Origin: Escherichia phage ST31
Sequence record: NC_047829.1
Direction: 5' to 3' (one strand)
DNA length: 39,693 nt
Shown: piece by piece, positions 9,304 through 11,848 of the stretch
Layout of the letters: every line of letters begins with the position of its first letter
Numbering within the stretch: the first letter of the stretch is position 1
Translations under genes and position numbers: made by a program
The notes under the pieces: model-generated
What the model was told of the DNA's origin: nothing
The model's database searches: none
Seen by the model: only the letters and a program-made list of their open reading frames with translations

Positions 9304-9751
9304 GGTTCAGTTCAACCCACGGTCCCGGACTGACGCTATCTTCGTTCACTGTTCGGCTACCAAGCCAGATATGGACATCGGGGTAGAGACCATCCGTATG
9401 TGGCATAAGCAGCAAGGCTGGCTGGACGTAGGCTACCACTTTATCATCAAGCGCGATGGCACTGTGGAAGAGGGTCGCCCGGTCAATGTCGTAGGGTCAC
9501 ACGTTAAGGACTGGAACTCCAAGTCCGTAGGCGTCTGCCTTGTAGGTGGAATTGACGCTAAGGGCAAGTTTGAAGCTAACTTCACTCCAGCCCAGATGGA
9601 CTCCCTGCGCAACAAGCTGGCTGACCTGAAGGCCCTGTATCCTCAGGCAGAAATCAAAGCACACCATGACGTAGCACCTAAGGCGTGTCCAAGTTTCGAC
9701 TTGCAACGCTGGTTGACTACCAACGAACTGGTCACTTCCGACCGTGGTTAA
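9293..9751 (+). CDS. N-acetylmuramoyl-L-alanine amidase / T7-lysozyme-like RNAP inhibitor (gene 3.5 homologue)
   Basis: 152 aa; DAIFVHCSATKP, GWLDVGYHFIIKRDGTVE, VGVCLVGG, HHDVAPKACPSFDL, C-terminal NELVTSDRG. Confidence 0.95.
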   Translation: MVSKVQFNPRSRTDAIFVHCSATKPDMDIGVETIRMWHKQQGWLDVGYHFIIKRDGTVEEGRPVNVVGSHVKDWNSKSVGVCLVGGIDAKGKFEANFTPAQMDSLRNKLADLKALYPQAEIKAHHDVAPKACPSFDLQRWLTTNELVTSDRG

Positions 9752-9775
9752 TAAACTCTAAAGGAGAACAACTCA

Positions 9776-9991
9776 GTGATTAAACTTATCGAATTTCTTG
9801 GTCGTCTGGTGGTGCGTGGTTATCGTCGTGCTGCGGTACTGGAACGAAAGGTAGAAAAGAAGACTGCTGACGGTGCGGCTGAGGCTGCTGCTCTGGCTGA
9901 CAAGCTGACCATTGCGTCACTGGAAGCTGGCATGAAGGCACGTCAAGCTGACACCAAAGCTGACCAGTTGGCCCAGTTCTTCAAAGCCTAA
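9776..9991 (+). CDS. Hypothetical protein (71 aa), probable GTG start
   Basis: ORF track; AGGAGA RBS before GTG 9776; alanine-rich helical product. Confidence 0.45.
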   Translation: MIKLIEFLGRLVVRGYRRAAVLERKVEKKTADGAAEAAALADKLTIASLEAGMKARQADTKADQLAQFFKA

Positions 9992-10009
9992 ACTATCACC
10001 TTAGGGATG
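9987..10009 (+). promoter_or_regulatory. Degenerate phage promoter-like sequence (CACCTTAGGG)
   Basis: AAACTATCACCTTAGGGA; two core mismatches; may be weak or inactive. Confidence 0.35.
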
Positions 10010-10054
10010 GGACCGTGAGTCCTGTCCCTTTGTTCGCATTTGTGATTAAGAAAT

Positions 10055-10133
10055 GTCTCCATAGCTCAAACGGTAGAGCGGCGGGTCGTGATGGCCTATT
10101 GCGATTAGGGTTCGAATCCCCGTGGAGACGCCA
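10055..10133 (+). tRNA. tRNA-like element (candidate tRNA or degenerate tRNA), anticodon unresolved
   Basis: Perfect 7-bp acceptor stem GTCTCCA/TGGAGAC then G-CCA; canonical D arm TAGCTCAAACGGTAGAGC; T loop GGTTCGAATCC; anticodon stem does not pair cleanly by hand (one fold gives loop GTCGTGA, anticodon CGT). Confidence 0.4.
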
Positions 10134-10144
10134 CTAAGGAGTGA

Positions 10145-11848
<1,704 letters not shown>

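Follow-up and report, generated by a model that had tools for sequence, protein, structure and literature searches.

The DNA analyzed here (the window) is the whole 39,693-bp genome of Escherichia phage ST31 (NC_047829.1), a Kayfunavirus (K1F-like, Autographiviridae, T7 family) whose closest record is Escherichia phage TM1 (97.8% identity over 9700-10500). All large ORFs and all matches to the phage promoter lie on the + strand. T7-type phages have compact genomes of ~40 kb and are the textbook case of full reliance on host tRNAs. Between a small ORF and gene 4, which codes for the primase/helicase, the window carries a 79-nt element with the shape of a tRNA. The features of this locus are:

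9776-9991, + strand: small upstream ORF of 71 aa, phrog_1950 (E = 3.5e-25), function unassigned (hypothetical protein in relatives); the last gene before the element
9992-10007, + strand: variant promoter for the phage RNA polymerase, ACTATCACCTTAGGGA, with two mismatches to the consensus ACTATCACTATAGGGA
10004-10028, + strand: predicted 10-bp hairpin GGGAUGGGAC-CGUGA-GUCCUGUCCC, found in both the MFE and the centroid folds of 10004-10170
10047-10134, + strand: 88-bp cassette (TAAGAAAT, the 79-nt element and a C), delimited by alignment with relatives
10055-10133, + strand: tRNA-shaped element of 79 nt (ARAGORN, Rfam tRNA, pair counts over 10 variants)
10055-10061 with 10123-10129, + strand: acceptor stem GTCTCCA/TGGAGAC, 7 bp
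10064-10079, + strand: D arm TAGCTCAAACGGTAGAGC
10081-10102, + strand: central arm (stem 10083-10087 with 10093-10097; extension 10081-10082 with 10101-10102 over a 3-nt bulge)
10088-10092, + strand: 5-nt loop GUGAU, where the element varies most
10106-10122, + strand: T arm with the T loop GGTTCGAATCC
10130 and 10131-10133, + strand: discriminator G and encoded CCA, read from the sequence
10135-10147, + strand: gene 4 ribosome-binding region TAAGGAGTGACCA, invariant in the alignments of relatives and reused by alternative cassettes
10148-11848, + strand: gene 4, primase/helicase of 566 aa (ORF list; so annotated in all relatives)

The element reads GTCTCCA-TA-GCTC-AAACGGTA-GAGC-G...TAGGG-TTCGAAT-CCCCG-TGGAGAC-G-CCA. 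An earlier note had described by eye a 7-bp acceptor stem ending in G-CCA, a D arm and a canonical T loop at 10055-10133, and all of these were found exactly there. ARAGORN delimited the same 79 nt, called them tRNA-Thr(cgt), and reported no other tRNA in the window. With the Rfam tRNA model (RF00005) the element scored 36.7 bits, above the gathering score of 29 (E = 2.8e-4 over the whole window), so that both programs pass it; the other Rfam families gave sub-threshold noise. The 42 canonical tRNAs from six phage contigs scored 34-71 bits with the same model, mostly at least 48, which places the element at the bottom of the range, and the copy from Kosakonia phage Kc166A (27.2 bits) fell under the threshold. 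The Rfam fit spends 21 nt on the central arm of the element, while the anticodon arm of the model has 17 nt. Folded alone, the element was no more stable than its shuffles (z = -1.2). It has the 7-bp acceptor stem, discriminator, CCA, D and T arms and above-threshold score of a canonical tRNA, and it lacks a 5-bp stem with a 7-nt loop bearing U33 and a purine at 37, as well as a constant anticodon or amino-acid identity.

The earlier note had also remarked on the imperfect pairing of the anticodon stem. This was correct, and it became the key point of the analysis. Pairing was counted over 10 distinct sequences of the element, each cell being one pair in one sequence. The anticodon stem drawn by ARAGORN (26-30 with 38-42) was paired in 70% of the cells; it holds a G×G mismatch in all sequences, and the change G40A breaks it in three of them. 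A stem shifted in register (29-33 with 39-43), which closes a 5-nt loop, was paired in 50 of 50 cells. Within it, pair 32:40 is U·G in six sequences, U-A in three and C-G in one, and pair 29:43 is G·U in nine and A-U in one; the stem can be extended by pairs 27:48 and 28:47 across a 3-nt bulge. Constrained folding gave an MFE of -25.8 kcal/mol with the shifted stem versus -23.5 with the ARAGORN fold. RNAalifold predicted the same shifted arm from an alignment that had itself been fitted to the shifted-stem model. Every change in the central stem affects one side of a pair, turning wobble G·U into Watson-Crick, and none is doubly compensatory, so that the evidence for the shifted stem is good, not conclusive. 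In the loop GUGAU, positions 1, 3 and 5 vary, and the U at 2 and the A at 4 are invariant in the variant alignments.

A 7-nt loop, CGUGAUG, which has neither U33 nor a purine at 37, can also be drawn. Across the variants, G, A and U occur at position 33 of this loop and U and A at position 37, and a pair between its terminal C and G can reduce it to 5 nt. Since this loop would form if pair C33-G39 opened, decoding is conceivable. However, ARAGORN labeled copies that differ by 1-6 nt as Thr(cgt), Met(cat), Ser(tga) or Stop(tta), in two registers. Codon usage gave no sign of demand for a threonine tRNA: ACG is the least-used Thr codon of the window genes (8.7 per 1000, 15% of Thr codons). UCA stands at 14.5 per 1000 (23% of Ser codons) and is probably about twice as frequent in the phage as in E. 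coli. AAC stands at 33 per 1000 codons in the coding regions of the window. TAA ends 18 of the 26 window genes, so that an allele able to suppress ochre codons would be costly. The threonine anticodon CGT tentatively proposed in the earlier note was thus rejected on the pair counts, the shifting ARAGORN calls and codon usage. That note had left the choice among a functional tRNA, a degenerate one and a tRNA-like signal. A tRNA-shaped element downstream of a variant promoter is what was found, and tRNA-Thr(CGT) was dropped; as the variants back the shifted stem with its 5-nt loop, the tRNA-like and degenerate options are favored over a functional tRNA.

The fold of the remaining cloverleaf is kept. 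The elbow bases (U at 8, A14, G18, G19 and A21, with the T loop TTCGAAT) are invariant in all 10 distinct variants, Kc166A included, and so is the conserved elbow set T54-Ψ55-C56 and A58. The acceptor stem was paired in 98.6% of the cells, with changes on both sides at five pairs, and the D stem in 100%; the T stem reached 79.6% because it carries an A×C mismatch in nine of the 10 variants. In pO91 the acceptor pair U2-A has become C2-G. In Kc166A the acceptor stem is shifted in register by one base and keeps 6 bp, with A×A at pair 1:72, a T-stem G-C has become A-U, the central stem is all Watson-Crick, and the CCA is not encoded. The covariation score, the percentage of paired cells, and the numbers of pairs and of cells with changes on both sides were each matched by none of 500 shuffles. 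All nine independent single substitutions were neutral for the helices or improved them (P = 0.0045 under uniform mutation, 0.022 with a transition bias), and four of the nine fell within the 5-nt loop (P = 0.0016). The three broken pairs of Kc166A, against a simulated mean of 5.6, are suggestive only (P = 0.09). A metagenome copy (L147:5151-5228, - strand; contig CYGL01000127.1) is one nucleotide short in the CCCC run of its T stem, which may reflect misassembly of the homopolymer or real damage to this copy. Conservation as such was rejected as proof of selection: the identity of the element across phages is no higher than that of the adjoining 5′ end of gene 4 (97-99%), and the flanks are mosaic.

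The weakened promoter mentioned in the earlier note was located at 9992-10007. Matches to ACTATCACTATAGGGA number 11 on the + strand of the window, versus 0.38 expected by chance; they start at 1448, 4980, 6649, 7626, 9992, 15781, 18990, 19996, 24544, 32321 and 37858. Their core is ACTATCACTATAGG(G/A)(A/C), and the ending is GGAC or GGAT in the early and middle promoters but GGGA or GGAA in the late promoters. The promoter before gene 4 is alone among the 11 in having CACCTTA instead of CACTATA. By analogy with T7 promoters, transcription would start at ~10004, which leaves 51 nt before the element. The predicted hairpin at 10004-10028 sits at the 5′ end of such a transcript, and may act as a 5′ stabilizer, or as a protector of the 3′ end of the upstream RNA after processing. 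The promoter is invariant in the aligned kayfunaviruses with and without the element, including Kaz2018, which has no insert, and the hairpin is likewise conserved in both groups; hence, both are features of gene 4 rather than of the element. The predicted order of the transcript is hairpin, leader, element and, 2 nt past the CCA, the ribosome-binding site of gene 4.

Alignment with relatives showed that the element arrives as a cassette. The 88-bp insert is flanked by TAAG repeats (10047-10050 and 10135-10138) and is present in the window, TM1, phage U8 and IME278; the Kaz2018 allele without it reads TTTGTGAC directly followed by TAAGGAGTGACCAATG. Many relatives align in two pieces over ~713 bp rather than over 801 bp. 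At the same point vB_EcoP_F carries a 59-aa ORF (phrog_6794) and a duplicated ribosome-binding site; in Citrobacter phage SH5 the element precedes an HNH endonuclease (HNH_3), and in Kc166A it precedes a nucleotidyltransferase-like protein of 179 aa. Kayfunaviruses have a hot spot for cassettes where the amidase/small ORF meets gene 4 (10047-10147 in the window, and L005:593-850, L008:480-860 and L007:680-1233 among the loci compared), and its cargoes are none, the tRNA-like element, the 59-aa phrog_6794 ORF, the HNH_3 endonuclease or the mini nucleotidyltransferase. Every insertion re-creates the ribosome-binding site TAAGGAGTGACCAATG, and the tRNA-like cassette opens with a shortened copy of it (GATTAAG..AAATG). 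Since most kayfunaviruses lack the element, including relatives ~97% identical in the flanks, it is dispensable.

The 79-nt sequence was found in 33 of 50,697 phage records, all of them kayfunaviruses, whose hosts are Escherichia, Salmonella, Enterobacter, Klebsiella, Citrobacter and Kosakonia. The surrounding 801 bp match 184 records, so that ~18% have the element. A pattern spanning all known variants picked up two metagenome copies (L147 and L149) and none in IMG/VR, and in none of 185,579 bacterial and archaeal species genomes did it detect a true copy; a first, looser pattern built on the D arm had matched just unrelated canonical tRNAs. Blastn against 5,426 E. coli genomes gave nothing, even with the cutoff relaxed to E ≤ 10, and a host origin was rejected on these searches of the E. 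coli and species genomes. A covariance model of the element detected nothing in 80 T7-like primase loci or seven nucleotidyltransferase loci. Rare overall, the element is specific to phages and restricted to a single genus. Canonical tRNAs for Glu(UUC) and Arg(UCU) in unrelated viral contigs (L260:2164-2239, - strand; L258:1461-1535, - strand; L259:1779-1855, + strand) match its acceptor stem GTCTCCA/TGGAGAC and its discriminator G exactly, and a viral-contig tRNA-Glu also shares the entire 26-nt 3′ half GGGTTCGAATCCCCGTGGAGACGCCA. This could be a coincidence in a database so large, or the element could be a chimera or derivative of such tRNAs; because coincidence may explain the sharing, we claim no ancestry from tRNA-Arg(UCU) or tRNA-Glu(UUC).

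The neighbor of the element in Kc166A, at L007:694-1233, belongs to phrog_1614 (140-250 aa) and has the sequence GGCARD...DWD, matching the family motif GGxxRD...DxD, which resembles the head-domain motif seen in CCA-adding enzymes of class II and in poly(A) polymerases. The protein lies downstream of the sole copy of the element that lacks CCA. Its single NCBIfam match, PcnB, was weak and covered the motif region, and searches of PDB sequences and of PADLOC gave no match. Homologues of phrog_1614, often annotated as "tRNA nucleotidyltransferase", occupy the slot between amidase and primase in 195 T7-like phage records (Pseudomonas, Dickeya, Pectobacterium, Klebsiella and Yersinia hosts). A functional link with the element was rejected, as none of the seven homologue loci sampled (L171-L177) has a tRNA-like RNA nearby. 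The adjacency in Kc166A is best read as the shared use of one cassette slot.

The existence of the element was known before this work. Petrzik et al. (2021) predicted a "pseudo-tRNA" gene in Kc166A and in the kayfunaviruses DY1, ST31 and LM33_P1 (PMC8402661). It is the same element at the same position, identical to that of the window in phages U8 and IME278, in LM33_P1 and in 18 other records. That earlier work is a software prediction, and the labels conflict: GenBank has tRNA-Thr (U8, vB_VIPECLMC06), tRNA-Pseudo(GTG) (IME278), tRNA-OTHER (HC12 and the CHRF phages) or none, the Pseudo(GTG) and tRNA-OTHER records seeming to use annotation of the tRNAscan-SE type. The remark in the earlier note that phages of the T7 group are not usually described as carrying tRNAs was borne out in general, since ARAGORN found none near the primase gene in the 60 T7-like contigs scanned, yet this element already stood in GenBank and in print (PMC8402661). 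What is new here is the shifted stem with its 5-nt loop, the boundaries of the cassette, the promoter context and the distribution. A literature search on the kayfunavirus element found no expression, processing or aminoacylation experiments. Databases and phage-therapy genome papers label the element inconsistently, as tRNA-Thr, tRNA-OTHER, pseudo-tRNA or nothing, and "tRNA-like, with a non-canonical anticodon arm" would be the fitting label.

Several known RNAs invite comparison. The tRNA clusters of T4 and T5, the latter with anti-defence tRNAs (PMC11555353, PMC10264068), are likewise phage-encoded, cloverleaf-like, accessory and patchy in distribution, with an encoded CCA. However, those canonical tRNAs have a 5-bp stem, a 7-nt loop, U33, a purine at 37, a stable anticodon and scores mostly of 48-71 bits, none of which the element has; it sits alone in a 40-kb T7-type genome, in an mRNA leader. 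Anti-defence tRNAs of the T5 tRNA-Tyr and tRNA-Lys type are competent for decoding and stand in for host tRNAs that a defence nuclease has cut, while the element, judged from its sequence, would present a canonical anticodon loop in no register. Substrates of RNase P that resemble tRNAs include the precursor of the C4 repressor RNA of P1 and P7, the CI RNA of P4 and the eukaryotic mascRNA. Like these, the element has an acceptor/T-arm module that could direct RNase P, together with a 3′ CCA, and mascRNA also lacks a functional anticodon loop; they have no sequence kinship with the element, and their downstream functions are known, whereas its processing is only proposed. In the E. coli thrU-tyrU-glyT-thrT-tufB operon, tRNAs that are true decoders are co-transcribed with an mRNA, and the intergenic RNase III sites of T7 are hairpins and not tRNA-like. 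The element may be likened to both, as a putative structured processing module in a polycistronic RNA upstream of a coding region.

It is very likely that the element descends from a tRNA gene. Our preferred reading of its present state, to which we give about an even chance, is a tRNA mimic whose structure is under selection, which does not decode, and which is probably matured by host RNase P. The low diversity of the copies, 21 of the 33 records being identical to the window, counts against this. It is possible, if somewhat unlikely, that the element is instead a decaying and functionless relic of a tRNA gene of an ancestral kayfunavirus, conserved through recent ancestry and by hitch-hiking with the start of gene 4. 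Its absence from ~80% of related records, near-identical phages included, and from 21 Kayfunavirus-type contigs of IMG/VR fits decay, as do the Rfam score at the bottom of the phage-tRNA range with the Kc166A copy below threshold, the recurrent T-stem mismatch and the L147 deletion, the missing CCA of Kc166A, and an identity about equal to that of gene 4. The compensatory changes in the acceptor and T stems argue otherwise, and so does the absence of helix-breaking changes among the nine single substitutions (P about 0.005-0.02). Kc166A, whose genome is 68.8% identical to that of ST31 (PMC8402661), keeps the element at the same site with a fully Watson-Crick central stem, and a neutral 88-bp insert would be expected to vanish quickly from a compact 40-kb genome of the T7 type. 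More remote is the view that the insert is no RNA gene but either a scar of DNA recombination or a junction of cassettes, or else an ORF for a short peptide. The TAAG repeats and the partial copy of the gene 4 ribosome-binding site that bound it, the other cassettes that duplicate this site at the same place, and the two ORFs that overlap the element (ATG at 10052, 18 codons; GTG at 10015, 40 codons) point that way. We consider this highly improbable, since two independent tRNA models match and the changes at paired sites fit RNA helices rather than codons; the small-ORF version was rejected, the ATG at 10052 being ATA in pO91 and 1-nt indels shifting the frame in Kc166A and L147.

A genuine decoding tRNA with an odd anticodon arm, which would supplement translation or replace host tRNAs destroyed by a nuclease, is in our opinion unlikely. 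It could take either of two forms, one with a 4-5 bp stem, the 7-nt loop CGUGAUG and the anticodon UGA (UUA in pO91 and PDP21P1), the other with the Thr(CGU) fold of ARAGORN. Such a tRNA would pass both ARAGORN and the Rfam gathering score, as the element does, and would have the encoded CCA, unbroken elbow and sound acceptor stem that the element shows; UCA, which UGA would read, is fairly frequent. Phage tRNAs with altered loops that evade anticodon nucleases are documented (PMC10264068, PMC11555353). Against decoding, the loop is canonical in no register: the CGU fold has its G×G mismatch, is broken in three variants and would serve the rarest Thr codon, and the 7-nt register has inconstant bases at 33 and 37 and ends that can pair. 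The anticodon would vary among near-identical phages, becoming an ochre suppressor in two of them. Bacterial tRNA-Ser requires a long variable arm, and the element has none. Still more doubtful to us is that the element acts in trans as a decoy, an abundant tRNA mimic without an anticodon, driven by the phage polymerase, which would capture or divert immune effectors or enzymes of the host that sense the tRNA shape or the CCA instead of the anticodon. Examples of systems with tRNA targets are PARIS AriB, retron effectors, the "tRNA tail" cleavage by Cas12a3, and bacterial Schlafens. Under this decoy reading the fast-changing loop NUNAN would be the mark of an arms race and not of relaxed constraint; in a variant of this reading, the UUA-loop alleles of pO91 and PDP21P1 would be weak ochre suppressors.

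If the element is a non-decoding mimic, as we prefer, the following course can be proposed; we infer its transcription, its processing by RNase P and the absence of decoding. The phage RNA polymerase would transcribe the element within the leader of gene 4, both from the promoter at 9992-10007 and by read-through from upstream, and host RNase P would then cut at its 5′ end. Such a cut is expected because the 7-bp acceptor stem is stacked on the T arm (a putative coaxial stack of 7 and 5 bp) and because the sequence offers a U at -1 (AAAU|G), the discriminator G and an encoded CCA, i.e., a 3′ GCCA. Cleavage would part an upstream RNA ending in a hairpin from an RNA that begins with the tRNA-shaped module. 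The module may then be freed as a stable RNA of ~79 nt, or be kept as the structured 5′ end of the gene 4 mRNA. The leading candidates for its benefit are processing or stabilization of the gene 4 mRNA in cis, or a sink in trans for host factors that bind tRNA. That the whole L-shape is kept, beyond the minihelix that RNase P needs, is a mild argument for more than a cleavage site.

If this interpretation is right, kayfunaviruses would offer a compact case of tRNA mimicry in a DNA phage, with a shape kept by compensatory change and without a normal anticodon. An action in cis would represent an alternative of the RNase P type to the RNase III cuts by which T7 processes its polycistronic RNA. 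An action in trans would tie the element to the antiphage defences that target tRNAs and to the counter-measures of phages.
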